From the IMG/VR virus record IMGVR_UViG_3300028361_000023, positions 1-64,000 of that record: 64,000 nt of DNA; one strand, given 5' to 3'. The notes under the pieces were generated by a model. That model saw only the letters and a program-made list of their open reading frames with translations. It had not been told where the DNA came from and did no database searches. Of the stretch, positions 2 to 17,600 are shown piece after piece; within the stretch, counting starts at the first letter, position 1, and every line of letters starts with the position of its first letter. The position numbers and the translations under genes are program-made. Origin of the DNA: a virus.

Positions 2-175
2 AAAGAAATGGTTCTTAGTCTTTCTGTAGGTACAGAAGAAACAAAACAAGAATATGTAAAAGAACTTAACGAGGATTTAAAGTTAATAAGTACTGCACCT
101 ACAGAAGAATTAAAAAACTACTACATTCAACAATATAATCTTAAAGTAGAAGGATTACAAAAATTAAATAAATAA
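2..175 (+). CDS. 3' end of an upstream gene (partial), probably virion cargo protein
   Basis: Open frame 2 from the window edge (KEMVLSLSVG...GLQKLNK*); its TAA at 173-175 overlaps the ATG of the next gene (TAATG). Confidence 0.75.
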   Translation, partial: KEMVLSLSVGTEETKQEYVKELNEDLKLISTAPTEELKNYYIQQYNLKVEGLQKLNK

Positions 176-3100
176 TGCCAATATTAGAAGACATAGCAAA
201 ACAAGCTGCCGAAAGTCCTCAAAATGTTGAGAACAATAAAAACACTACTGATAATTCTGTTTATACACCTAATTACGGTTTAGTTTCTCAAATTGACTTA
301 AAAGGTAAATTTCCAGAATTAATTGGAAAATCAATTACAGACGAAAGTAGTAATCCTAATGAAGTTCTATTCGACCCTACTGGTGGTTATGCTACTGAAA
401 ATTTAAAAGCAAGACAACAAAATATTCTTGAATTGTTAGGTAATACTGCTGTTCAAATTAGTGCAGAAGTTGTTAGTGGTATACCTAGTGCTATTGGTGC
501 TTTATTAGAACTTCCTTCTCTTTTACAAGGTGAGTCTGATTTTGATAATTGGTTTTTAGAAGCTGGAGAAGATATAAAAGAATGGTCAAGAGAAAGTAAT
601 CCTATATATAGAAAAAACAGAACAGCAACTTTTAATATGACTGATACAGCTTGGTGGGCAGAAGGTAGTGTTAGTGCTATAGGTAGTACTTTAAGTCTTA
701 TGATTCCTGGTGGTCTTGGTGCTAAAGGTCTTAGTATTTTAGGGGCTAAAGCTTTTACTTCTACTTTAGGTAAAGTAGCTAGATTTTCAAATGCAGCTGA
801 AAAATACGGTAAAATAACTGATGAGGTTGCACGTGCTGTTTATATGGGTAGTATTATGCGTAATACTGAAAACTTTATGGAAGGTTATCAAGTTAAGAAA
901 ACTTTTCAACTTGAAAAAGCAAATGATTTTTTTAATATTGATGCTAAAGATAAAGACGGTAATAGCAGTTACGTAACTGATAATGAGATAGAAGAAATAA
1001 AACAAAAAAACAACTTAGATAAAGACGCAACTAGACAACAAGTATTAGAATTTTTAGGTAATAAATCTGCTGCTCATAGTTATAAAGTTAATAGTGTTAA
1101 TTTCTTATTTGATATAGTTCAAAGTTACGGTATATTAAAAGGTGTTAAAAATGTAGGTAGATTATCTACTAAAGCTGCTAGTGTTGAAGCTCAACAACTT
1201 ACAGGTAAAGCATTTACCAAAGCAGGTAGATGGGGATATAGAGGTAAAACTTTAGGATACAACATACTTACACAAGGACTTGGAGAAGGAGTAGAAGAAC
1301 TTATCAACCATATTGGAACAGAAGAAGGTCTTCATTATGGTAATAAACTTTTAAAAGGAGGAGAAGATAAAGGATTTATAGGAACATATACAGATCCTAA
1401 TAATGGTTTTAGTGGTAGAGTTTCTGAATATTTACAAGATCCTCATGCTTGGGAAGCTGCTTTTTGGGGTGTAATAGGTGGCAGTATTATGCCTGGTTTA
1501 ATGAGTGAATCTGGTAAACTATATAATAAAGCTAGAGGTAATCCTAATGTAGATGTTAGACTTACAGAAATAACTGCAAGAGAAACTGAAATGATGAAAA
1601 ATAACGGAATGCTTGCTAAGTTAAATCAAGGTATTAATCCTTATACTGGAGAAACTCTAAAAGATAGTGAGGAGGAAATAGAAGATCAAAAAAACGAAAT
1701 AGCTGAACAATTAAATTATCAACTCGCAATTCAACTTGCTAATAACGCTAGAAGAGCTGAAAACACTAAAGGACTTACTAGTTTTTTAAATAGCGAACAT
1801 GTTCAAAAAACAATGGAAAAAAACGGTGTAACTGCTGAACAATTTTCTAATGTTAAAAAAGAAACAGAAAATATGTTAGGTAGTATTGATAATATATCTA
1901 ATTATTTTAAATCTAGTAACGAACATATTAGTAGTATATTAACTACTAAAGCTATAAATTCTCAAACTCAATCTAAATTTTATAACAATATAGCTGAAAA
2001 ATCTAGACAAAGATTTGAAAATAAAAAAAATAAAGATGATTATTACAATAATTTAACAGAAGAAGAAAAATTCGAATATGATTATATTTCTGAATATCAA
2101 AGCAATAATAATACTATAATAGATTTACAAAATCATTTAAAAAAAGAAGAAGAACGTAAAGGCAGTAAAAGTATAGCAAATAAAACATTTAATAATAATG
2201 TTAAAAAAAGTATAGAAGAATTACAAGCTAAAAATAAAGAACTAGAAGAAACATATAAAGAAAGTCTTGATCCTAATCTTGTAAAAAATGTTTCAAAATC
2301 TAAAGCAATTAGAGATTTACATAGAGCTAAAGTGTATGAAGAACTTACCAAAGCTGAAAAAGTTAGAACAAAGTCTATATATGATAATGTATCTCAAATT
2401 ACAAAAGAAGTACAAAACGAAATAAAAGAAATCGTATTAGAAACACAAGATGAAGCTAATGAAAATGCTCAAATAGCTTTAAATGATATTGATGAAAATA
2501 CTGAAAATTATTCTGATAAAATTAAAGAAATAAAGAAAAAGTTTAAAGAAACTAATCCTAAAGATACTTCTATTGATTTTGCTGGTAAAATTAAAGAACT
2601 TGACCAAATAAATAAAAAAGCAAAACTTGTAGCGATAGAAAAAGAAGACGTAGAAACAGAACAAAAAAATTCTTTAGAAAGCGTTAAAGAATCTATAACA
2701 GAAGAGACAGGTATAGAGTTACCTAAAGATTTATTTATGGATAATTTCCAAGATACAAATAAAACTATAGAAACTACTGAAAAAATCATTAAAATACTTC
2801 AAACAAAAGAACAAACTCCAGAAATAGTAGAAAAGTTAAAAATAGTTTCAAATGCGTTAGAGGTTTATAAGACTAAACAGTTAAATAAAATAAATTATAA
2901 TGTAGAAAACAATGATAGTGCTGAAAGTTCTAATCAAGTTAATATATATCTATCTTCTGTAGCTGAAGCAAATAATAAAAGAAAAGACGGTAATATAGTT
3001 ATAAGTGATCTTAATACGGCTGTAACTTTAGGACAACTAACTAATAATTTAATTAACGGAGAAAAGCTTATCATAAGTTACGCTACTAAAGAATCTGATT

Positions 3101-5685
3101 TTCCTAATAGAAAGTCTTATGAAGAACATAAAAAAGATATAGGAGATAAAAACAATGCTCCTATTGTTTTACGAAGTAGAAGTGGACAACTTATAGGACA
3201 TATAAATTCTCTTAGATATTTAATACAAGAAGGTAATTTAACTAATAAAATATTACAATTAAATCCTATTGAAATAGTAGAATTAGCTACATTACTTGAC
3301 ACTTATTTAAAAGAAAGCACTGATATAAATAAAAGTAATCTTATTAATTCTAAATCATTTGCAAAAGCTACTGGCATAACTAAAGAACAAAGTGAAGTAG
3401 CAGAAGAAAGAACAAATAAAGCAATTAATCATATTACTAATCTTGTTTTATTTACTAAAAGCAAAACAAACGAAAATACTTTTGAAGCTAAAGAAATTAT
3501 TGACAGTTTAAAAATTTGGCAAAATAAAATAAAAAGAGATTACAGAAATAATAAAAAAATTAGAAACAACATTAAAGAAGGTAATCAAACGATAGAAATA
3601 GGACATATAAGCTCTGGGTCTATTGTTAGTCTTAAAGATAACAATGGAAAAAATATTTATAAACCTTTAAAAGAAACTATTGTTCAAGATAATATTAAAA
3701 TTACTTTTACTAGACCTAACGACAAGACTACTTTAGTTACATTAGACAAAGACGTTAAACTTATAACAAAAGAAGAAGAATACAAAGAAGACTTTTATAC
3801 TTTATTAGAAAGTAAAGGTAATTACATTCCTGTGCCTATTTTTAGAACATATCTTAATCAATCTAAAAACAAAGAAATGTATGAATATGTTAAAACTAAT
3901 TTATACAACATAATTAGTATTCTTGATAAAGGAGAACCTATGAACTCTCAAACATATTTAGATGCTATTGCAAAACTAAGAAACGTAGTTTATGTAGAAC
4001 AAAGAGAAAACGGTAAAGGTTTTAATAAAGGTAAAAAAAATCAAGAAACTGGAATAACTTCTAAAGCTAGATTTGAATTTCAAACAGAAAAAAACGGTAA
4101 AATATATTTTAATATAGATAAAAACGGTAAGTTAAGAGTTAAAGTAGAAGGTAAAAATTCCTCTATGGAAGCTGCTGATATTGACGAAGCTATAGGTCAA
4201 ATGAAAAGACATGCTGATTTTAGATTGCTAGAAAAAAATGATCCTTTTGTAGATGTTAGAACAGGTAAAGCTTATAAATCTTATAAAGATTTTCTTGTAG
4301 ATACAGATGTTTTTCAATCTAATATAGGTAAAGTTATATTTAAAAATGGAGAAAATACTGCCGAAATATCTAATTTTACTGCTTCTAATAAAAATAATGG
4401 ATATGGATTACCTTTAATATTAAATCTAAATGCTGATACTTTAGAAAGTGAAACAAGTGAAACAAGTGAAACAAATACTAACAAAGCTGATACAACGGAA
4501 AGTATCTCTTCTATAGGCAGAATTAACAGTGTCAAGGAATTAACAGACTTGTTAAAAGAAAAATATTCTGTAGTTGCTAATTTAATAAATAATAACTATG
4601 TTTCTATTAATCCCGAAATAATAGACAGTAGTACGTTACCTGAAAGTATACAAACTGCTTTTGGTATTCATAAAGATGGTGTAATTTCTTTTACTGATAA
4701 TATAAATAATAAAAGACTTGAAAATGGTTTTTTAGATTTTAACGATATTACTGCAACAGTTGTTCATGAAGTTATTCATAGTGTTATAGCTAATCTTACA
4801 CCTAACGGAAAAACAGAATTATACCAAAATTTAAACACATTTTATACAGAGTTAAACCAGCATATAAGTAATAATAAAGTTGTAGTTCCTGCTAGAGTAC
4901 AAAACTTATTATCTTTTATAGATAAAGAAATAAAAAAGGACTCAAATAACATAGAAGAATTAGTTACTTACGCTTTTACTAAAGATTATCTTGCTAAATT
5001 TTTAAATGATTTAACTATTGATAGAACTTCTAAAACTAAATCAAATACTTTTTTTGGTAAATTAAAAGAAATAATATTAGGATTATTAGAAAATACAGGA
5101 TTTACACAATTAGATAAGTTAAACAAAGTAATAGATGATACACTTTTCGGAAAAACAAAATTAGAAGAAGTTAAAGAAACTAATAGTAAAGAAAAAATTG
5201 ATACCGAACAAAAAAAACAAAACAAACAAAAAGTTGATGAAAATAACACAACTAAAACAATAAAAAAAGAAACAATTGATGATGATATAGAAGATATTGA
5301 TATTGATGTTGTTTTTAATGATAATTTTCAAGATCAAGATTTTCCTTCTAATCAAAGACCACAAAGATACGTTCAAACTATTAAACAACAAATTAGAAAC
5401 GAATTAATAAGCAAAAATCTCATTGATAAGTACCACGTTTTTAGTATATTTGACGATAACGGAAATTCTAATTTAGATAAGATAAATAAAATTGTAAATA
5501 CATATAGAACTGCTGCTTTTAAAGCGGGTAAAACTTTACCTGTTGATATATATGAATTTGACGATAATTATATTAATGATTGGGGTACTAAAGGTAAGAT
5601 TAATTTTAACCCAGAATTAGCAAATGTAAGATTTGATTCTTTTGTAGAAAATAAAGGTAGAGAACTTAAAAAATATTGTAAATAA
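175..5685 (+). CDS. Giant virion cargo/ejection protein with C-terminal zincin-like metallopeptidase domain
   Basis: 1836 aa; Gly/Ala-rich hydrophobic segments near the N-terminus, coiled-coil middle, VVHEVIH (HExxH) at 4765-4779 followed by EELVTYAF; directly upstream of the vRNAP as in crAss-like phages. Confidence 0.8.
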   Translation: MPILEDIAKQAAESPQNVENNKNTTDNSVYTPNYGLVSQIDLKGKFPELIGKSITDESSNPNEVLFDPTGGYATENLKARQQNILELLGNTAVQISAEVVSGIPSAIGALLELPSLLQGESDFDNWFLEAGEDIKEWSRESNPIYRKNRTATFNMTDTAWWAEGSVSAIGSTLSLMIPGGLGAKGLSILGAKAFTSTLGKVARFSNAAEKYGKITDEVARAVYMGSIMRNTENFMEGYQVKKTFQLEKANDFFNIDAKDKDGNSSYVTDNEIEEIKQKNNLDKDATRQQVLEFLGNKSAAHSYKVNSVNFLFDIVQSYGILKGVKNVGRLSTKAASVEAQQLTGKAFTKAGRWGYRGKTLGYNILTQGLGEGVEELINHIGTEEGLHYGNKLLKGGEDKGFIGTYTDPNNGFSGRVSEYLQDPHAWEAAFWGVIGGSIMPGLMSESGKLYNKARGNPNVDVRLTEITARETEMMKNNGMLAKLNQGINPYTGETLKDSEEEIEDQKNEIAEQLNYQLAIQLANNARRAENTKGLTSFLNSEHVQKTMEKNGVTAEQFSNVKKETENMLGSIDNISNYFKSSNEHISSILTTKAINSQTQSKFYNNIAEKSRQRFENKKNKDDYYNNLTEEEKFEYDYISEYQSNNNTIIDLQNHLKKEEERKGSKSIANKTFNNNVKKSIEELQAKNKELEETYKESLDPNLVKNVSKSKAIRDLHRAKVYEELTKAEKVRTKSIYDNVSQITKEVQNEIKEIVLETQDEANENAQIALNDIDENTENYSDKIKEIKKKFKETNPKDTSIDFAGKIKELDQINKKAKLVAIEKEDVETEQKNSLESVKESITEETGIELPKDLFMDNFQDTNKTIETTEKIIKILQTKEQTPEIVEKLKIVSNALEVYKTKQLNKINYNVENNDSAESSNQVNIYLSSVAEANNKRKDGNIVISDLNTAVTLGQLTNNLINGEKLIISYATKESDFPNRKSYEEHKKDIGDKNNAPIVLRSRSGQLIGHINSLRYLIQEGNLTNKILQLNPIEIVELATLLDTYLKESTDINKSNLINSKSFAKATGITKEQSEVAEERTNKAINHITNLVLFTKSKTNENTFEAKEIIDSLKIWQNKIKRDYRNNKKIRNNIKEGNQTIEIGHISSGSIVSLKDNNGKNIYKPLKETIVQDNIKITFTRPNDKTTLVTLDKDVKLITKEEEYKEDFYTLLESKGNYIPVPIFRTYLNQSKNKEMYEYVKTNLYNIISILDKGEPMNSQTYLDAIAKLRNVVYVEQRENGKGFNKGKKNQETGITSKARFEFQTEKNGKIYFNIDKNGKLRVKVEGKNSSMEAADIDEAIGQMKRHADFRLLEKNDPFVDVRTGKAYKSYKDFLVDTDVFQSNIGKVIFKNGENTAEISNFTASNKNNGYGLPLILNLNADTLESETSETSETNTNKADTTESISSIGRINSVKELTDLLKEKYSVVANLINNNYVSINPEIIDSSTLPESIQTAFGIHKDGVISFTDNINNKRLENGFLDFNDITATVVHEVIHSVIANLTPNGKTELYQNLNTFYTELNQHISNNKVVVPARVQNLLSFIDKEIKKDSNNIEELVTYAFTKDYLAKFLNDLTIDRTSKTKSNTFFGKLKEIILGLLENTGFTQLDKLNKVIDDTLFGKTKLEEVKETNSKEKIDTEQKKQNKQKVDENNTTKTIKKETIDDDIEDIDIDVVFNDNFQDQDFPSNQRPQRYVQTIKQQIRNELISKNLIDKYHVFSIFDDNGNSNLDKINKIVNTYRTAAFKAGKTLPVDIYEFDDNYINDWGTKGKINFNPELANVRFDSFVENKGRELKKYCK
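4446..4474 (+). repeat. 9-bp tandem repeat (AAGTGAAAC x3, SET-SET-SET) in a linker
   Basis: Read directly from the sequence. Confidence 0.9.
4503..4520 (-). repeat. Dispersed 18-bp motif copy 1 (CTGCCTATAGAAGAGATA)
   Basis: Matches CTGCCTRTA-R6-AYA; inside ORF 175-5685. Confidence 0.9.
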
Positions 5686-8600
5686 TGAGTAAATGTCCAA
5701 ATAAAAATCATCCTGCATTTATTGATGCAGCTAATGTATTAGGTGAAAATGTAACTTATTCTTTGTATGAAGCTTCTAATGACACATTAGTAGATGAACA
5801 TCCTTTGTATGAAGAGTTTGTAAATGCTTATGGGATAGAAAATGGTATTAAGAAAATTGCTGATAGAGTACTTAATCAAGGCAAAGTAAATTATACTTTA
5901 AAATCTATAAATTTATTATCTTCTGATAAAGCTATACAAGTATTTGAAAAAGGGGAAAAAAATAATTGGAGTTTAGATAAAATTCTTACAGAACTTCAAA
6001 TACCTAAAGAGCAAAAGCAAATTATTCTTGATAAATATAAAAATAATAATATATTAAATCAATTAATTTTTCAAGATGGAACTTTAAATTCAAATAAGTT
6101 ATTAGAAAAATTTGTAGATGATTCTTTTGCAGGTAAATTAATAGATTTGTTAAATAAAAAAGGATTATTTAAAAATATTTCTGAAATTAAATTAAAAGAA
6201 AATAATAGTAGTGCATTAGGTTATTATACACCAGAAGGTTATTTAGAAGTTGATGCCCCTGTATCTCATCAACAAAGAACAGTTTTACACGAAGCTTTAC
6301 ATTCTGTAACAAATATTAAAATTGAAGAATACTTTAAATTATTTCCTAATAAAAATATAGGAAACAATATTTATACAGAAGTACCTAGTTATGGAAATAT
6401 CAACTTAACTAAACAAGATATAAATAATTTAGATTCTTTAGTATCTATATTTCAAAAAGTTTTAGATTCTAATTTAAAATTTAATGAAGATCCAAATATA
6501 GCTATAAGTAATAACAATTACGGTTTAGACAACTTACATGAATTTTTATCAGAAGCGTTAAGTAATCCGTATTTTGTAGAACAATTAAAAACACTACCTT
6601 CTATTAATAATAAAAGGTCTAATTTATTTAAAGATTTTATAGAAAATATTTTATCTTTTTTAAATATAAATAAAAATATATCTATTTATGATGATATTGT
6701 GAATAATTTTGAAGATTTATTTTTAACTAAAAAAACAACCAAAAATAATTCTAAAACTAACCTAAGAGAAGATATTATTACATCTTTATTAGCTGAGAAT
6801 GCTGTAGTTACAGATGTTACTAACATTCAATATTCTGAAAATAAAACTTCTTATATTAATTCTAAATTAGAAAATACTGGCAGTAACCTAAGAGAAAAAG
6901 ATGTAGAAACACCAAAACAAAAATCTTTAACACCAGAGCAAAATAAATCTATAGAAAATTTAAAATCTATAGAACCTGCTTATGCTGATTATAGTAATGA
7001 ACAGATACAATCTTTTATAGAAAGTAAGATACCTGATAGTCAAGCTAAGCAAGTTTTGTTTCATGGAGGTACTTTAATAAAAGACGAAAAATTTAAAGAT
7101 AATTATACAGGGTCAAAAGGAATATACTTTACAGGAAGTAAAAAAAGAGCAGAAAGTTATATTAAAGCAAAAGGTAGTACGGAATATAGTAACAATAGTA
7201 AAATATATGCTACTTTACTAGATATTAAATCTCCTTTAAATAAAAAAGTATGGAGTAAATGGAAATTTAATGCAGACACTATTAACGACAAAGAATTTAA
7301 ACAAATACAAGATAATAATGCAGATAGTATTATAGATAAAGATTTTTTTAGTAAAATAGGTTTAACTAATTACAATACGCAATATATAGTATTTGAACCT
7401 TCTCAAATAACAATATTAAACTCTCCAGAAACAATACAAGAGTTTAAGGAGTTTATTAATGCTAAAAGTGAAAAAAATCAAAATAAAAAAATATTACTTG
7501 ATAATTTTGATGAAAATAATAAAACTAATCAAGACAAAGTAAATTACACTTTAAAATCTATAAATTTATTATCTTCTGATAAAGCTATAGAAATATTTGA
7601 AAAAGGAGAAAAAAACAATTGGAGTTTAGATAAAATTCTTACAGAACTTCAAATACCTAAAGAGCAAAAGCAAATTATATTAGATAAATATAAAGATAAA
7701 ATAGCAGGTAAAAAATTATCTATAGTAGCAGAAAGAAGAAAATTAGCAACTGATAAAGATTTAGAAAATTCCCAACTTATTAAAGATATAAGAGTAGATA
7801 AATCTCAACCTAAAGAATTAAAACCTAATGGATATGATAATAATTTAGCAGCAATTATGCTCTATGGTATGAAAATGTCTGAATTAGAAGATAAAGGATT
7901 ACCTGAAGAAATGCAAGAAGCTAATGTGTTAGCTTATAGAATATTAAATAATTTCATGTTTAATATTAATGAAATAACGGAATTTATGGACGTTATGACA
8001 CCTCAATATGCAAATGTTTTAACTACTAATGAAAATCCAGTTAAAGAATTTTTTGAAAATGATGTGTTTGAAGAAAGTGATAAAATTAATCTTAACCTAA
8101 GAGAAGATATTATTACATCTTTATTAGCTGATAATAGTTTTGTGGTTGAAGTTAATGTTGCTAAAGAAAATGATAAATTAGGAAAACAACCTCATCCTAT
8201 GGAGGGTGAACGATCTTTTACAGTAAATGGAGATATATACACTTTAAATAGTGATGTAGAACCAGATGGCGAAGGAGGTATAAGTAATTTTACTACTGCT
8301 TATAAAAATGATAAAGAAATAACAATTGAAGAATATTTAAAAGGTAAAAAATTAGCAAGTGATAAAGGAATTAACACATCTTATTACTCTAATCTAACAG
8401 TTCCAGGTGGTACTAATTATACAGAAAACGAAATATCTACACCTGATATTATACCTAATATTAAAGGTCATGCACAGTTTAGTACTAATAATGGTATAGG
8501 ATGGTTTAGAAGTGATGATAAATCTAGTATAATTACAAAAGAAATAGAAACTACTGAAAAATATGACCCTGAATATGATGAACAAGGTTTTTACTCTAAA

Positions 8601-11600
8601 ACCCAAAAAGAAGAAATCACTAGCTTTTTTGTTGAATATAAAGAAGCTAAAGAAAAAGGTGTTTATATTAAAAGTGAGAACGGTTATAAATTAGGAGATT
8701 TTTTATATAAAGAATTTGACTTAGCTTTTGAAGGTATAAAATATGTAAAATATTTATACAAAGGAGAGTTAAAAGATACTAAAATCCGTAGAATACTAGA
8801 AGTACAATCTGATTTATTTCAGAAAGGCAGAGATAAAAAAGATTTAATAAGTAACATAGAAGATGAAACTTTTAGAAAATTAGCTGATAATCAATTTTTA
8901 CAATTATTAAACAAAAAAGGTAATTGGGTTAATTTCTTTATACAATCTATAGTACAAGATAGTGTTAAAAAGGGTTATAAAAAAGTATTATTTCCTACAG
9001 GAGAAACTGCTGCTAAAGTAGAAGGTCATGAAACTATTGCTGAAGAATTACTTAAGCTAGAAAATGAAATTATAAATAAAAAGCAAAGGTTAAAAGAAAT
9101 AGGAAATAAAACCACAGAATACATAATAGCAGACCCTTTTGAAGGAGAGGAAGTTTATAATAACAAAGAAGAAGCTGAAAAAGTAGCTAAACGTAAGGGT
9201 TTAAAAGTTCATATAGGTAGTGTAATTGATAATAACTTAGAAGAGGAATTAGAAATACTAGAAAAAAATAAAAACAATCTTAAAACTCAAGGTATAGAAA
9301 AACTTAAACCTGTTGAAGCTTTTTATACTAATAGAGTTACTAACATTCTTAATAAATTATATGATGTAACTCAAATTACTGATGAACATAGTAATACTTG
9401 GAATGAAGTAGATATTACTAAAAAAGAAAATCAAAGTAATGATATTTTTCTTGATAATTTTGATGATTCTCCTATTAAACCTGAAATCAAATTACATAAT
9501 ATGGAAGGTTATCTTGCTAATAATATATCTTTTAATTCTGATAGTATTAATTTAAACGCAATTGAAAGTTTAGAGGTTAAAAACGTAACAGCTTTTATTG
9601 TAGCTCAAGTTAATACTTATTTAGAAAAAAATAAACTAAAAATTTCAGATGAAAAACTCAAAGAACAAGTAATAAAAATTATAAAGAGCAAACTTAATGT
9701 AGATAATTTTACAGCCGAACAAAGAAACTTCGTAGAAAACAAATGGATAGCTGGACTTGAAAGAGATAATTCTTATTTATGGGGACAAATTAAAAATATA
9801 AGTAATAGTAAATACGGTAAAGTTCTTACCGAATTTAACGAAGAATTTGCTTTAGACGTTAATACTAAAGATTTTGATGATAGTAAAAGATTTAAAGAAA
9901 GTACTTTAAAAGGAGAACAAGATTTAAAAAACAAAATAAATCAAATAATTAAAACACCAAAAGAACAAAGTTACTCTGGTTTTGATGTTTATTTTGATTT
10001 TCGTCAAATTGCTGGAAAATTACATAGACATTTACAAAATACTAATAATAAAAATTTTATAAATAACTTTAGTGATCTTATTTTAATAGATAAAAGTTAT
10101 GAAAAAATATTAAATAAAGTTAATGAAGATGAAAATTTTAAAATAAAGTTAGCTAATTTTACAAATGTAGAATATATACAACCTAATCTTGATATAATTA
10201 CTGTAAATTCAAAAGGAATTACAAGTTACAAAACAGAAGATGAAACAAAAGGACAACAACCTGGAATTAAACTTGCTAATAGTTGGATAAATGAATATAA
10301 AAAAATAGTAACTATCCGTGATTTACAAAAAGAAAATTTTTTAGACGAAATAACTGACATAGAAAAAGAATTTAAACAACATTTAATAGCAGAAGATTAT
10401 AATAATGCTGCTAAAACTTTAGTAGAACTTTTTGCAAATATTAATATAAATATAACTAAAAATGATTTATCTAAATTTATAAAAATAAATCCTGAATTAA
10501 TAATATCTGAATATTTATCACAACAATTTGATACTTATAAAGCATTTAAAGACTACGCTATTTCTTATGAAGGTGGCGATACAAAAACTACTTATCCAAA
10601 TATAAATAAATTATTTAGTCCTTTAAATAATTTTGCTGTTGATATGAGTATTGTAAGTTCTGAAGAAAAAGAATTAAGATACGCAGATGTTAATCAAAAT
10701 ATGTCTAGTGCTGTTGTTTCTAACTACCATTTAAGAAGATTTTTTAATACACTTAAAGGAGATAATGGTAAAGCTTTTCTTGTTGAATCGTTACTTGAAA
10801 AAGGTATACAACATTCTAATTGGTTAATTAGTGGTAAAATAATTATACCTCAATCAGACAAAACAGAAATCATATTTGATAGTAATGGTATACCTGTAAT
10901 TTTTGATATAAATAAAGAAGTTGTAAATATTATGATAGACCAACCACTTGCAGGTTCTGTTAATAAATTTACTAGACAAGGTAAAACGTATGAAGATTTC
11001 GTAGAAAAAGATTCTATGATATTGCAATTTGTAAAATACGTAACGAATAAAGAAAAACTAACTACTAAAACTACTGGTATGAGTATTATAAATATGAATA
11101 CTCCGTCAGAAGGTAAAGGTTTTGATTTAACTGTTCCTATAACAACTGTTATACCAAATATGGTAAACGAATTAGAACGAATTGAAAAAATAAACCAACC
11201 TAAAGTAGTTAAAAAAATAGACCAAAGAGGTCTGCCTATAGAAAGAATATTTTCTATAGATGAACAAAAAGAAGCTGCCTTAAAGTACTTATTTATAGAG
11301 ACTGAAACAATAGATAATAAAGTTGTAGAAAAAAGAAATAGTCCTATACTACAAGCTTTTATGAATATAGCTTTACAAGAAATAGAAAGAATACAAGAAG
11401 CTAATGAAGATTTTGGAGATATACTTGATGGAAAAACTACAGATAGAACTCTTGATATTCCTAAAATGCAAATGTTTTATGATTATAAAACAAAAACCAC
11501 AGTTAAAAAAGACGGAACTAAAATAACTACTTTAATAAAAGGTAATAAATTTAAATTTAATACTTTATCTTATCTAAATGATTTTTTAATTAAAGAAGAC

Positions 11601-14600
11601 GTAGATATAAATAAACTAACTAAACAAGACATTATAATAAATGGTGTTTACACTAAGTTAGGTAAAATGTTAAGATACGAAATAATTAAAAATATAGCTA
11701 ACAAAAGTTTAAACGCTAGTAAACAATATACAAAACTATATCCTGAATTAAAAAGTTTAAACAAGAATATTGATATTTTTAAAAACGATGCTGCTGAATT
11801 TGTTTTAAATTACGAAATTACTCAAAATGAATTAAGTAATTTTGTTACAGGTAAATTAGGAGAATTTAAGTCTGGTGTAGATTTTATTAAAAGAAACAAA
11901 AAAACAACTACATTAGGTAAACCTCAAAACGTAGAAAACGAAAACGAACATTATGTTAGTTTGAATTTAAAAGACATAATAGTTGTTAGTCCTAATTTTA
12001 ATATTCCTATAGAAATTACAGATGCACAATCGGTAATAACACTTGGATTATTTGAAGAAAAATCTAAAAGAAGAGGTGCTCTTACTCCTAAAAGAAAAGA
12101 AGCTATAGAAAATATAAAAAATGGAATTAAAACAACTGAACAACTAAACCAATTAAAAAACTTTCATACTTCTTATAGATTTGATAAAAAAATAAATGGT
12201 AAAGGTTTAAATAGAAGAGTATCTAAACAAGTTAAAAATAGTGAATTAGTTGTTCATTCTTCTATGTTTCCTGGAACTCAATTTGGAGAGTTTATGAAAT
12301 ATATAGAAGAATTAGAAGAAAAAATAGGTAAAAAAATTCAAATAAATGTAAGTTCTGGTCAAAAGCATGGTACTTTTAAAGAAGTAGATATAGTAGACAA
12401 AGATGGAAATTTAGACCTTAATGATATTACTAAAGAATTATTAGAAACTAGTTTAGATAACAAATATTATAGTGATGAAACAGAACAACTTAGTTACGAA
12501 GCTGAAGAAAAAAACCACGATAATAATATAGGTTCTCAATTACATAAAGTATTATTAACTAATCTTAGTAATGATGCTGTATATGAAATAGGAAATAAAA
12601 AACTTACTGGTCCAGAAGTTCAAAAATTAATAGGAGAATTACGTTCTATTGATGTTGAAAACGCAGCAAAAGAAGTTGTTAAAGATTTAGAAGACGAAAA
12701 TGGAAATGTAACAGAATTAAGTTTAGCTAGTTTTTTAAGAAATCACGGACTTAAACAAGATTGGGCTAATAATATATTAGATATGTTACAAGAAGACAAA
12801 GAAAGAGGACAAACATTGTTACCTTTTTATTTTAGTAGTGTTAATACTAAGATACAACAAGCTCTTACTTCTTTGTTTACTAATAACGTACTTAAAGAAA
12901 AATTTAATGGAAGTCACAAGTTTCAATTTGCTAATTTTTTAACAGATAAAAAACCTATAACAGAAAGTGAAATTAAAGAAGAAGATTCTTTTAATAGTAT
13001 AACATGGATAAATGGAAAAGTAGAAGAACTAACTTCTACTATTTTAGATGGTGAAAGTAGATTACATGCAAAAGTACTTCTACCTTTTACTATGAAAGAA
13101 TTTATGACTAGTGATGTTAAAAATCTTGACAAAAAAGCTTTACAAATGTTAGGTTATAGAATACCAACAGAAGGTAAATACTCTGTTTATAGTTTTGAAG
13201 TGGTAGGATTTTTACCTGAAGCTTTAGGTAGTGCTGTAGTTTTACCTAACGATTGGATTGCTTTATCTGGCTCTGATTTTGATATAGATAGTTTATATAT
13301 TGTTTCTTATTATCTTGATAATGAAGGTAAAGTTATAGAATATTTAGATGACACTAATAGTACTGTAGAAGAAAGATTTTATAAAGTAAATAAACCTAAA
13401 CAATTTGAAAAATCTAAAAAGTTAGTTGAGTTATTAGAAAATAAAAACAAAACAACAGAAGAATTACTTACACAAATAAGAGAAGAATTAGAAGTTAATT
13501 TTAATTTTAAAGACTTAAATAATAAAGAAATCATAAAGCTATTAAAAATAGAGAGCACTAAAAGAGTAACTACTATTGCGGAAGCAAAACAAGAATTACA
13601 AAAAGCAGAAGATAATAACAATAATTTAGAAGCTGTTTCTATATCTAAAACTATTAAAAACCAAACAGAAACTCTTAATTATCTTAATGATTTAAAAAAC
13701 TTTTTCTTTGAAAATAGTAAAGATATATCTCAAGAGACTAATAATCTTTTTGAAAAAGAAATAAAAATCTCTAATGCTCAAAAATTTGAAGAATTTAAAA
13801 AACTTCCTATATCTAAGCAAAATACTAAATTTGCTAGAAAAAATCTAGTATTAGAAAGTTATCAAGAAATTATTTTAAACCCTAATTCACATGCAGAAAT
13901 CAAAGAAAGATCTAGTTTTGATTCTATAAAACAAAGTACTACTCGACTTGAAAATCTTTTAAAAAGTAAAAATAAAGAAGAACTTCATCCTTATGATTTT
14001 TTTGATCAATTAAAAACTACTAGTTTAGTTCTTGCAGGTAAAAAACTTAAAGGGATGGCTGTTCAATTAAAATCTACTACTGATATAGCAAATGCAGTAG
14101 GAGGCATAACGTTAAGTAAACCTTTACAAATAAAACTTAGTAAAAATCGAATAAAAGAAGTAGGCATTAAAAACATTAAAAAAGTATTCGGCAATTCTTT
14201 TAACGAAACTACAAGAATACTTACTTTAAGTACTATAGGTAAAACAACAACTGGAAGTAATGTAAATATTGATAATATTTTTATAACAGGATTAACTTCT
14301 CAAACTACAGCATACACTCTTGATATTGTTAAAGAAGGAGGCATTCCTGGAGTTACTACAGATACTCTTACTACTTTTGTTTTACCTGCTATGTTAGGTT
14401 TAGAAAATTATGATTTTTCTATAATGTTACTTAATCAACCAATAATTAAGTATTATTTAACACTAGAAGATAATGAAAAAGGTCATTTTAATACAGGAAA
14501 CTACGCTAGTAATAGTCTTTATAGAGATTATAATAATCTTATTAATAGGGCTAAAAACCCAGAAAGTAAATTTGATAAATATATTAAAAAAGAAGACAGA

Positions 14601-17600
14601 ATTAAATTATTAGAATTAAATACTGTTCCTGATATAGAAGAACTAGAGAAAAACATAACTATTCAAAAACAAGGAGCTAAAAAAACTTTATCTAATGCTA
14701 AATATATAGAATACTTAGAAAACCAAATAGCTTTATTTAATTATTTTTTATCTGTTCAAGATATTAGTAAAGACATAGCAAATTTAAACGAAGTATTAAG
14801 TTATGATAAAATAGGAGGTGGTCCAACTTTAAATACTACTGTAAATCAAACTTATAAAGTTGTAGATATTGAAGGTAAATTTAGTATTAATGGTATTGAT
14901 TTAGTAGAAGCTATATTTGGTGAAAATTCTGTTTATCCTATGTTAAAAACATTTAAAGAACAAGTAAATGATACTAGTTATAATTTGTTTAAAGATTTCT
15001 TTATAACAGAAGGTGACACTGTAGTTTCAGAAATTGTTTCTACTGTAAATGGTAAAGATAATCAAGAAGCATTAAAAAAATACATAGTAAATGTTTTTCT
15101 TATAGGCAGACCTTCTAGTCCTACTTATTTTGGCGAACTAGAAAACGATATGATAAGTAAAAGAAGAATACTTAATCCAAAAAACAAAGAAAATATCTCT
15201 GCTTTTGATTATCAATACGTAAATATAACTGATTTAAGTCAAAAGAATTTTGAAGTATTTCAAAGTCTTACAACTTCTAATAAATTAGATTTAATTAAAA
15301 ATCAAATAAGTAAATTAATTTCAGAAACACAATTATTTGATGGTATTAATTTTAATCCTGAAATTAGACTAAAGTATGATAAGTTAAATTTAGATTTAGA
15401 TAGTGATGTTGATATACTTATAGAAGAATATAAGAAAGCATTAAATTCTAGTAATCCTTTTGTTAAAAATTTAGCTTACGAATTAATAGGTTATGAATAC
15501 CTTACAACTGGTTTAGAGTTCGGTAAAGGATTAGCTAAAATAATACCTGCTGAAGTTTTTAGACAAAAACAAAGTGTAGTTGGTAATTTAGACATAAATG
15601 GAACCCTTAGAGACATACATAACAAGCTTAAAAATAAAACATACCCTGATCTTTTTGACGTATTAGATGGTTTTTTAAGAAGCAATTATAGTAATGATAC
15701 TCTTGTTCCTACTTTAAGCCGTGAAATTAAAGATAATATAAAAAAAGGAGTAGAAAAAGATACTATTTTTAATCTTGATGATTTACCTATAAAAATACAA
15801 AAAAATACAATATTTAAATATGTAAATAAAGACCAAGAAACTACTGAACTATATAAAAAATTTACAAATGAAAATGATGTATTTTTTAGAGAAGTAAATA
15901 AATTAGAAAAATTTGAAAAAGGGGATGAAAGTTATTATAAACCTAATAATACAGTTAATACTGCTGATACTTTTATGGATAACTTTCAAGAATCTTTATT
16001 ACATAACAACAATGAAGCAGTAAGAGAAGCTTTAGTTAAGCAATTTGAAGCTGCTAATTATTCTAAAATAACAGGAGAGTTAGAACATTTTACTAAAGAA
16101 TTTTTTCATAGGTCTATAAAACAAGATTTTACTAAACTAACTGAAAGAGAATTATACTTATCTATTTATGGTAATATAAAGAAAAAACCTTTATTACAAG
16201 ATATAGTAATGGTTGAAAATATTCAAATTAATAAATTACCACTAAGTGATCTTGCAAAACTAGCTAAAAGATTTGAGGATAAGTTAGATTTAAGTGATAT
16301 TGATTTAGTTTCTTTACCTGTTTATAAAAAAATAGAAGAACTAGATACCGAAGGTTTATATAGAGGATTACTTCAAATATATTTATACAATCAAGAAAAA
16401 TCTATATTTCTTAAAGACAAACTTGATAAATTAAATATAGATGAAAATACTCTTAATAATCCAAGTAGTAAAAAAGAAGCTACAAAAATATTAGACGAAT
16501 TAAAAAGATTTGTAGAAAGTTATAAAGATTTTGAAAATCTTAAATTTTATAAACAAGAAGAAGATACAAATAAACTAAATATACTTCAACAAAAAATAAA
16601 TACAGTTATAGGTAAAATTCAAGATCAAAAAAATCAAATAGAAAATCTTGATGCTAATAGAGATATTAAATTTACCCAACTGCTTGTAGAACTTTACAAG
16701 AAAAACTCAACACAAGACATAGGTAAAAACGATGAAGAAGTCAAAAATTTTGTAATAAATTCATTAAAGCAACTACACGATATAAGTTTTTTTGCTGAAA
16801 AAGGAGATACTATATTCGATTCTGGTCAAGCTTTTATTAGTATATTAGGAAAAGAAATAAGAACTAATATGGCAGAAGGAAATATAACACAACTTGACTT
16901 ATTAAAAGAATGGAATACGATATATAAAAAAATAGGAAAAATAGAAAATATACTTGAAACAAAAGAAGTTACAGACGTAAAAGGAACTAGAACTATTAAT
17001 ACTGGTAAATGGGACATAACTAAAACAGATGCTATAGGAAAAGAAGTTACAGCTTTTTTTGTTAAACTACAAAAATTAGCTATAGAAGTGTCTCCTGATG
17101 GAAGTATTGCACAGGGTTATTTACCTTCTATACCTAATTTAAAAGGAGACAGTTTAGATACTTTTATAAAAAATAGTTTATCTTATTATGATGATATTTC
17201 TTTAAATAATAAAAATAATGTAAAAGACAGTTTAGGTACTAAATTTAGTAATATAACATTACCTTTTGATACTCTAATTGTTAAAAAGAAAAGTATAACT
17301 TATAGGAAACAAGAAAAAGACGAAAGTATAGGAGAATATAATTCTAGTGTAATACATGATGTATTTATAACTACTGGTAAAACTTTTAACAGTGTTAAAG
17401 ACATTAGAACATATAATAAACTTGTTGCTGATAGAAATAAAAAACTTAAAAGCGATCTTCATGGTGAAAATATAGACTATAATATGGCAGAAATTATTCC
17501 TATATTTATAGAAAAAATTACACAAACTAAAAGTAAAGCAGATAATGTAGACTTAGCTAGACTTCTTGTAAATGAAGTTAAAAGCAGAAAAAATATCAAA

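Follow-up and report, generated by a model that had tools for sequence, protein, structure and literature searches.

No phages are more abundant in the human gut than the Crassvirales, which are also common in the sea. In the crAss-like Cellulophaga phage phi14:2, the module that encodes the virion RNA polymerase (vRNAP) consists of three separate genes, gp67, gp66 and gp65. For fused crAss polyproteins, Drobysheva et al. suggested that they are 'likely cleaved into individual components', and a zincin-like domain was named in gp65 (bioRxiv 10.1101/2020.03.07.982082). The paper defines no cleavage site. The locus described here belongs to the IMG/VR virus record IMGVR_UViG_3300028361_000023; its positions 1 to 64,000, a stretch of 64,000 nucleotides (nt), are referred to as the window. 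Its first two plus-strand genes, p1 and p2, carry a short recurrent peptide, [FL]-x-D-N-F-[QD]-[DE] (hereafter DNF), at the seams between protein modules, and this seam peptide is the new information that the locus adds to the processing proposal. The gene module is the same as in phi14:2, with a gp67-like p1, RNA polymerase (RNAP) and gp65-like parts in p2, and a DFDxD motif. The two phages differ in that phi14:2 keeps three separate genes, whereas here gp65-like sequence stands on both sides of the RNAP, together with an ADP-ribosyltransferase (ART) domain, an N-module and a conserved domain that we call 'TWNE'.

In potyvirus polyproteins of the NIa/TEV type, known from RNA viruses of eukaryotes, virus-specific heptapeptide sites are cut by a demonstrated chymotrypsin-like protease. 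The DNF peptides are similar in that a motif of seven residues marks each junction, always in corresponding places but with a different sequence from one related virus to another; the protease is demonstrated there, whereas here cleavage is predicted and the candidate is a metallopeptidase-like HExxH domain. In large phages, prohead proteases (T4 gp21, phiKZ/SPN3US) cut internal head and ejection proteins at short consensus sites in maturation. Such prohead-protease maturation of head and ejection proteins has been described for large phages (PMC7411985). The present phage differs from these, as neither the prohead protease profile PF04586 (S78) nor PF00574 (ClpP) has a match in the 87%-complete genome (the search with PF03420 (S77) was uninformative, its controls being silent), and the DNF motif is longer and lineage-private.

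Polyvalent proteins, known from phages and conjugative elements, form another described class, predicted to be autoprocessed by zincin-like MPTases, and DdrB of P1 is cited as processed (Iyer, Burroughs, Anand, de Souza, Aravind 2017; PMC5512222). They share with p2 the character of giant multidomain injected proteins, the ART-PolyVal domain and HExxH domains, and p2, as judged from its ART-PolyVal domain and its modular map, belongs among them. In contrast, the MPTase-PolyVal profile (PF18818) finds no match in this genome even at E<=10, the LPD23 and LPD1 profiles also have no match, and PMC5512222 gives no site motif. The idea of processing has already been published by Drobysheva et al. 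and Iyer et al. with no site attached, while the seam peptide and its private variants are new. Literature searches found no published description of a recurring seam peptide or of private variants at equivalent seams, and nothing on cleavage sites in the literature on crassvirus cargo processing or on crAss002 virion proteomics.

The virus record is 73.8 kb long, has 25% G+C and is estimated to be 87% complete. A crAss-type TerL, portal and major capsid protein (MCP) are encoded according to PHROG matches, and the MCP is 36-39% identical to those of known crAss-like phages. Judged by sequence similarity, this uncultured phage is crAss-like and carries the Crassvirales virion RNAP module (orthologs of phi14:2 gp65-gp67). 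The p1 gene (175..5685, plus strand; 1836 amino acids (aa)) is gp67-like and opens the cargo/vRNAP module; it has a single cysteine, at the penultimate position. It is matched by phi14:2 gp67 (BLASTP E 8e-7) and aligns with the N-terminal 1660 aa of a fused homolog, P0003 (E 4e-104). The p2 gene (5685..19247, plus strand) encodes a 4520-aa protein, taken as polyvalent from its open reading frame (ORF), homolog map, gp66 and gp65 matches and ART-PolyVal domain. Its modules follow in the order Cys leader, N-module, HExxH, ART, DNF motif, N-module, TWNE domain, DNF motif, RNAP, DNF motif and gp65-like C-terminal domain. Two BLASTP matches link phi14:2 gp65 to p2 (E 2e-19 and 4e-7), and the RNAP piece has tblastn matches to crAss-like genes annotated 'RNAP catalytic subunit' with E down to 1e-52. 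Whole p1 and p2 had no matches in Pfam or PHROGs, and module-sized pieces searched against Pfam gave ART-PolyVal only. By analogy with the proteomics of phi14:2 and crAss001, both proteins are probably packaged in the virion and injected.

The DNF pattern occurs five times, always in p1 or p2 (6356 residues together). Two copies lie in p1, FMDNFQD (site 1; 2734..2754, plus strand, aa 854-860) and FNDNFQD (site 2; 5314..5334, plus strand, aa 1714-1720), the latter being followed by a tail piece of 116 aa (5335-5682). The other three lie in p2: LLDNFDE (site 3; 7494..7514, plus strand, aa 604-610), 8 residues before the second N-module (V619); FLDNFDD (site 4; 9447..9467, plus strand, aa 1255-1261), which starts 13 residues past the TWNE domain; and FMDNFQE (site 5; 15972..15992, plus strand, aa 3430-3436), which separates the RNAP from the C-terminal domain. 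A preliminary description of this DNA had listed these five peptides and two HExxH motifs (nt 4765 and 6288) and had placed a DFDID motif between the last two sites; all of them are found where stated, DFDID at nt 13275. From composition, 0.0036 copies of the full pattern are expected, and in 2000 shuffles the pattern turned up 0.0035 times on average and never more than once. No further DNF[QDEN][DE] exists in the six frames of the window, and other DNF tripeptides in long ORFs of the 73.8-kb genome lack the flanks. One of these, DNFKS (in LINDNFKS) near the N-terminus of a 3'-open ORF at the contig end, has no [QD][DE] flank and was taken as chance; that ORF encodes at least 1257 aa (L084:8046-11816, genome 70045-73815, outside the window) and has no PHROG match.

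The pattern had been chosen post hoc, so all three-residue cores with flanking columns were searched as well, with long internal repeats masked. In this search the DNF family reached a log10P of -14.4 (n>=5), and none of 150 shuffles reached this score (minimum -12.0, median -8.8). The fair claim on significance is accordingly 'beyond all shuffles', not '1e-15'. Masked versions at n>=4/5 were used; the unmasked version was dominated by a long internal duplication and the n=3 version by overfitting, and both were set aside. Cruder de novo scores (graph, star, likelihood-ratio) were too noisy or could not separate DNF from shuffles. An equal search-wide score was reached by a second family, N-x-L-S-[FY], whose five copies start at nt 4903, 6645, 11559, 17172 and 18786; two of these sit 46 and 119 residues past the two HExxH motifs.

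The preliminary description also held that the codons of the five copies differ. This is true only weakly, the codons being mostly the preferred ones with the exceptions of one TTC and one AAC, while its conclusion that the motif is kept at the protein level stands. Of 45 codon pairs compared, 37 use the same codon, where codon usage predicts 35.2, and there is therefore no sign of a DNA-level repeat; the sequence flanking the five copies shows no similarity between copies. The motif is kept at the protein level, not at the DNA level.

Going by homology and predicted structure, the five sites are module seams. The 30 residues upstream of each site fall in the lowest 3-9% of hydrophobic content in the two proteins (4th percentile for site 1 and 9th for site 2). 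Site 1 lies in an alignment gap, where p1 has 13 residues more than P0003, within a polar linker of weak conservation, and site 2 lies ~40-60 aa past the end of the conserved HExxH region of p1, beyond aligned homology. The three sites of p2 are at edges of blocks conserved among 90 homologs. Homology to P0002 ends at site 5, and between the aligned blocks that flank this site there are ~445 residues in P0002 vs ~150 in p2. An AlphaFold2 model of p2 aa 551-1305, built from 32 sequences (mean predicted local distance difference test (pLDDT) score 60), covers sites 3 and 4. Both have pLDDT below 50 beside confident domains: site 3 precedes a confident N-module (pLDDT 81-91), and site 4 is just past the last confident strand of the TWNE domain. 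Burial of the motifs in folded domains, which would speak against processing, was not seen at these two sites, and the linker-like position between domains noted in the preliminary description is borne out by the polar upstream sequence, the block edges and the low pLDDT.

Within p2, the leader and the N-module provide an internal control. The N-module, a unit of 55 residues with which many homologous proteins begin, is present twice in p2, as copy 1 (5880..6044, plus strand, aa 66-120) and as copy 2 (7533..7697, plus strand, aa 617-671), which is ~96% identical to copy 1 and has a confident AlphaFold2 fold. The leader ahead of it has been duplicated too and is more diverged. At the true N-terminus the leader has Cys4 and no DNF motif; the internal leader lacks Cys, and compared with the N-terminal copy it is longer by six inserted residues, LLDNFD. 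The TWNE domain (8100..9407, plus strand, aa 806-1241) is conserved and ends in TDEHSNTWNE.

Sites 4 and 5 bracket the RNAP piece (9468..15971, plus strand, aa 1262-3429), which contains DFDID (nt 13275-13289, aa 2531). It had been noticed earlier that these sites enclose a segment about as long as the stand-alone gp66 of phi14:2, and the comparison holds: 2168 residues (2175 from D to D) lie between them, and the gp66 record has 2180 aa. Residues 693-1370 of gp66 align with p2 aa 1885-2540 (BLASTP E 6e-23), and the flanks around this aligned core are of similar length in gp66 and the RNAP piece (692 vs 623 aa before, 810 vs 890 aa after).

The nearest homologs are only 25-40% identical, and several of them carry a recurrent peptide of their own at the same seams. 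In P0005 (5160 aa), KLA[TV]ITS is found four times (aa 455, 927, 1136 and 3985; search-wide log10P -19.5): ahead of the N-module, past the TWNE domain, ahead of the RNAP, and again where the RNAP gives way to the C-terminal domain. In P0003 (5603 aa), in which p1 and p2 are fused, I-x-FQ[DN]I is found three times (aa 1816, 2337 and 4509), before the N-module, past the TWNE domain and, for the third copy, at a position that BLAST aligns with DNF site 5. P0149 has [ML]FNEV[ND]Y at three seams (aa 799, 996 and 1494); this motif overlaps the first N-module strand, and its copies resemble truncated N-module starts. A peptide close to DNF itself occurs in P0004 alone, where DILLDNLTD stands at one equivalent seam, past the TWNE domain. 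The equivalents of site 4 are therefore DILLDNLTD in P0004, KLATITSS in P0005, ILFQDI in P0003 and ILFNEVNY in P0149, and in four lineages (the DNF phage, P0005, P0003 and P0149) the end of the TWNE domain is followed by the start of the motif at a distance of 12-13 residues.

How widespread such peptides are was addressed with a full HMMER scan, which yielded 898 proteins with the N-module/TWNE unit, and 68 lineages in which the unit is internal. The similarity of the flanks was above the 99% null, drawn from random window pairs, in 7 of 68 lineages, compared with 0.7 expected (binomial P 6e-6), and above the 95% null in 13 of 68 (P 3e-5). The IMG/VR loci L009 and L006, with a DID[FY]-type motif in their flanks, are additional cases. 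The 'ILLQK'-type strand past the TWNE domain in homologs showed no recurrence. Close relatives or split forms were searched for with the RNAP piece against viral contigs, with a search for shorter homologs and with N-module plus TWNE against GenBank phages, and nothing was found.

The same seams are gene boundaries in other lineages. In many relatives a stand-alone TWNE protein ends 15-70 aa past the domain, and gp67, gp66 and gp65 are separate in phi14:2; the pieces defined by the motif thus exist as independent polypeptides elsewhere, and the gp66-like length of the RNAP piece agrees with this.

At the boundary between p1 and p2 themselves another feature is found. The 6356 residues contain only two cysteines, one at the end of p1 (..KKYCK) and the other at the start of p2 (MSKCPN), which face each other across the gene junction (nt 5677-5696). 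Among 231 family proteins, a Cys is present within residues 2-7 of 174 and within the final six of 64, where ~1 of each is expected from the internal Cys frequency of 0.08%. The two go together: in 86 adjacent pairs of long ORFs, both facing ends have the Cys in 61, neither has it in 17 and one only in 8 (Fisher P 1e-11). The outer ends of the chain, the N-terminus of p1 and the C-terminus of p2, are without Cys, as they are in phi14:2 and crAss002. Gene-level seams have no private peptide and paired cysteines instead. In the pre-ejectosome of cyanopodophage A4, a disulfide is formed between Cys1715 of gp27 and Cys5 of gp26 (PMC12002296). The likeness is that the C-terminal end of one ejection protein is tied to the N-terminal end of the next, as the Cys pairs at the p1/p2 junction and in relatives could do; the difference is that this precedent concerns gene-level seams, not the DNF motif.

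On these comparisons, we give about even credence to the reading that the DNF peptides mark lineage-specific positions at which a polyvalent cargo/vRNAP polyprotein of crassviruses is processed, with cleavage predicted at each. Different private motifs at the same seams fit the expected look of co-evolving protease sites, since the peptides are short, lineage-private, at a fixed offset, in a flexible linker, recurrent at each seam and absent at the natural terminus. From this arrangement we infer the cutting itself as well as its enzyme, scissile bond and timing. Each site, lying in a flexible linker at a module seam, would be read as an extended strand by a phage endopeptidase that has co-evolved with the motif. 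The HExxH domains are the only visible candidates for this enzyme. The better candidate is the one within p1 aa 861-1715, as P0003 and P0005, two of the relatives that have private motifs, contain an HExxH region homologous to it. Cleavage of p1 at the motif or next to it would give pieces of ~855 aa, 855 aa and 116 aa. From p2 would come a piece of ~605 aa with the HExxH and ADP-ribosyltransferase domains, one of 646 aa with the N-module and TWNE domain, the RNAP of 2168 aa, having the size of the stand-alone gp66, and a gp65-like C-terminal domain of 1084 aa. Cutting may take place after ejection into the host, a guess made because the paired Cys at gene-level seams could hold the chain together in the virion and release it on reduction; at fused seams a protease site would serve the same end. 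The preliminary description had proposed polyproteins cut at DNF; the seam positions, the private motifs of relatives and the gene boundaries support it, and the cutting itself stays a prediction. Self-cleavage at an Asn- or Asp-based motif was also weighed; it was rejected, as the relatives' private motifs have no chemistry in common with DNF.

The search for a protease bears directly on this reading. The HExxH region of p1 (4246..5136, plus strand, aa 1358-1654; HEVIH at nt 4765-4779) is a candidate protease domain, and it is homologous to the regions that hold the single HExxH of P0005 and P0003. The second HExxH, HEALH (6288..6302, plus strand), is at p2 aa 202-206, and the two regions share only the TV[VL]HExxHSV helix. 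Used as a query, the p1 region found only itself, and no match longer than 200 aa was found in 80 IMG/VR loci. Look-alikes obtained with a protein language model were only clusters of LPD23/LPD1 ('large polyvalent protein-associated domains'). A single-sequence AlphaFold model of the HExxH region was unusable (pLDDT 39).

DNF, the peptide of P0004 excepted, is not conserved in the 90 homologs when searched with relaxed patterns or a five-site profile, these relatives being as distant as stated above. Several points weigh against processing. A recurrent junction peptide goes undetected in ~80-90% of related lineages; processing, if real, is therefore not general or not detectable this way. The preliminary description had treated the HExxH domains as zincin peptidases, and this is not confirmed: the regions match no peptidase family in Pfam (MPTase-PolyVal included) or PHROGs and no relevant PDB sequence, so that their putative protease status rests on the helix and on the literature on gp65 orthologs. 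The vRNAP of N4, which is also fused to a zincin, is packaged uncut (PMC5512222). Finally, if the paired cysteines tie gene products together, one chain may be wanted in the virion, which would disfavor cutting before ejection.

The two kinds of seam can be joined in a wider picture, which we offer tentatively and regard as unlikely to hold in full. The injected cargo, RNA polymerase and effector enzymes together, would be a programmed 'train' of modules, coupled by paired Cys at gene seams and by private cleavable peptides at fused seams. Neither coupling would come apart before the host cytoplasm, where reduction would open the one and a co-injected HExxH peptidase the other, freeing the enzymes in a set order. 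The seam peptides would constitute a fast-evolving code between protease and substrate in each lineage.

The main rival explanation, also raised in the preliminary description, is one of docking or handling, in which the peptide is a short linear motif that binds the portal, the inner capsid surface, a scaffold or a chaperone, and so loads the modules or orders their ejection while the chain remains uncut. Flexible linkers are suitable places for such a motif, and lineage specificity is equally expected of a motif that co-evolves with a binding partner. Short segments fasten the cargo protein gp45 of crAss001 to the portal and tail barrel (PMC10172136), the uncut packaging of the N4 vRNAP (PMC5512222) is a second precedent, and the P0149 motif, overlapping the first N-module strand, could be a shared contact element. 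However, a tag of this kind should be needed by both copies of the leader and N-module, and the N-terminal copy is without the motif while the internal copy has it inserted. Gene-level seams likewise have no DNF and only the paired cysteines, and a constant distance of 12-13 residues from the domain end, kept in four lineages, is more what one would expect of a boundary mark than of a handle. We consider docking possible, though a good deal less probable than an even chance.

A third explanation sees the seams as remnants or substrates of module shuffling at recombination joints (shared linkers, N-module stubs) that were later kept merely as harmless flexible linkers. Architectures are indeed heavily shuffled among the lineages, p2 contains repeat-flanked cassettes with its N-module duplicated, sites 3 and 4 have 15 identical bases in common, including the minority Leu codon CTT, and the P0149 copies look like truncated N-module starts. 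Against this, the two copies in p1 and the one past the RNAP do not flank repeated cassettes, the motif flanks are dissimilar, and homologous exchange would have little to work with in 21 nt. Codons agree no more often than their usage predicts, both here and at other loci; in the IMG/VR loci L009 and L006, which have DID[FY]-type flanks in common, the agreement is 8/14 vs 7.9 expected. In addition, different private motifs at one offset in four lineages imply continuing protein-level selection, and shuffling as the whole explanation appears quite improbable. The weakest alternative, that 6356 residues rich in K, N, E and D merely yielded a functionless recurrent peptide, can point to the crude likelihood-ratio search, to the equal score of N-x-L-S-[FY] and to the absence of the motif from homologs, but it is very hard to maintain when not one of 150 shuffles comes up to the score, when each of the five sites follows a polar linker at a module seam and when independent lineages show motifs of their own there.

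With processing as the preferred reading, a peptide at every seam opens the proposal of cleavage to experiment, as it predicts which products should appear, how large they would be and which residues to mutate. Should this be confirmed, the DNF peptides would provide an example from phages of a polyprotein cleavage code that is specific to a lineage. They would also define module boundaries at which the RNA polymerase, the ADP-ribosyltransferase and the widespread TWNE domain could be expressed separately.

Some of the modules so delimited deserve a further remark. The ART-PolyVal ADP-ribosyltransferase domain (7053..7409, plus strand, p2 aa 457-575) matches Pfam PF18760 with E 3.4e-9 and 38 bits, above the cut-off of 31.2, and is likely an injected effector. 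It is found in the first p2 piece, adjoining the HExxH region. For the TWNE domain, 898 homologs reach E<=0.001. Polar residues are invariant at many of its positions, with His, Glu, Asp and an RR..E.QSD stretch among them, and the domain looks like an enzyme; no match was found in Pfam or PHROGs, nor in the PDB by Foldseek with the model of N-module plus TWNE. The C-terminal domain (17103..19241, plus strand, p2 aa 3807-4519) is homologous to the C-terminal part of phi14:2 gp65 and is kept in ~45 homologs, with gp65 aa 937-1406 aligned to p2 aa 3995-4506 (nt 17667-19202; BLASTP E 2e-19). An upstream part of gp65, aa 286-445, aligns with p2 aa 276-446 (nt 6510-7022). The gp65-like sequence on the two sides of the RNAP gives the appearance of an RNAP and TWNE unit inserted into a gp65-like protein, or of a permuted module order.

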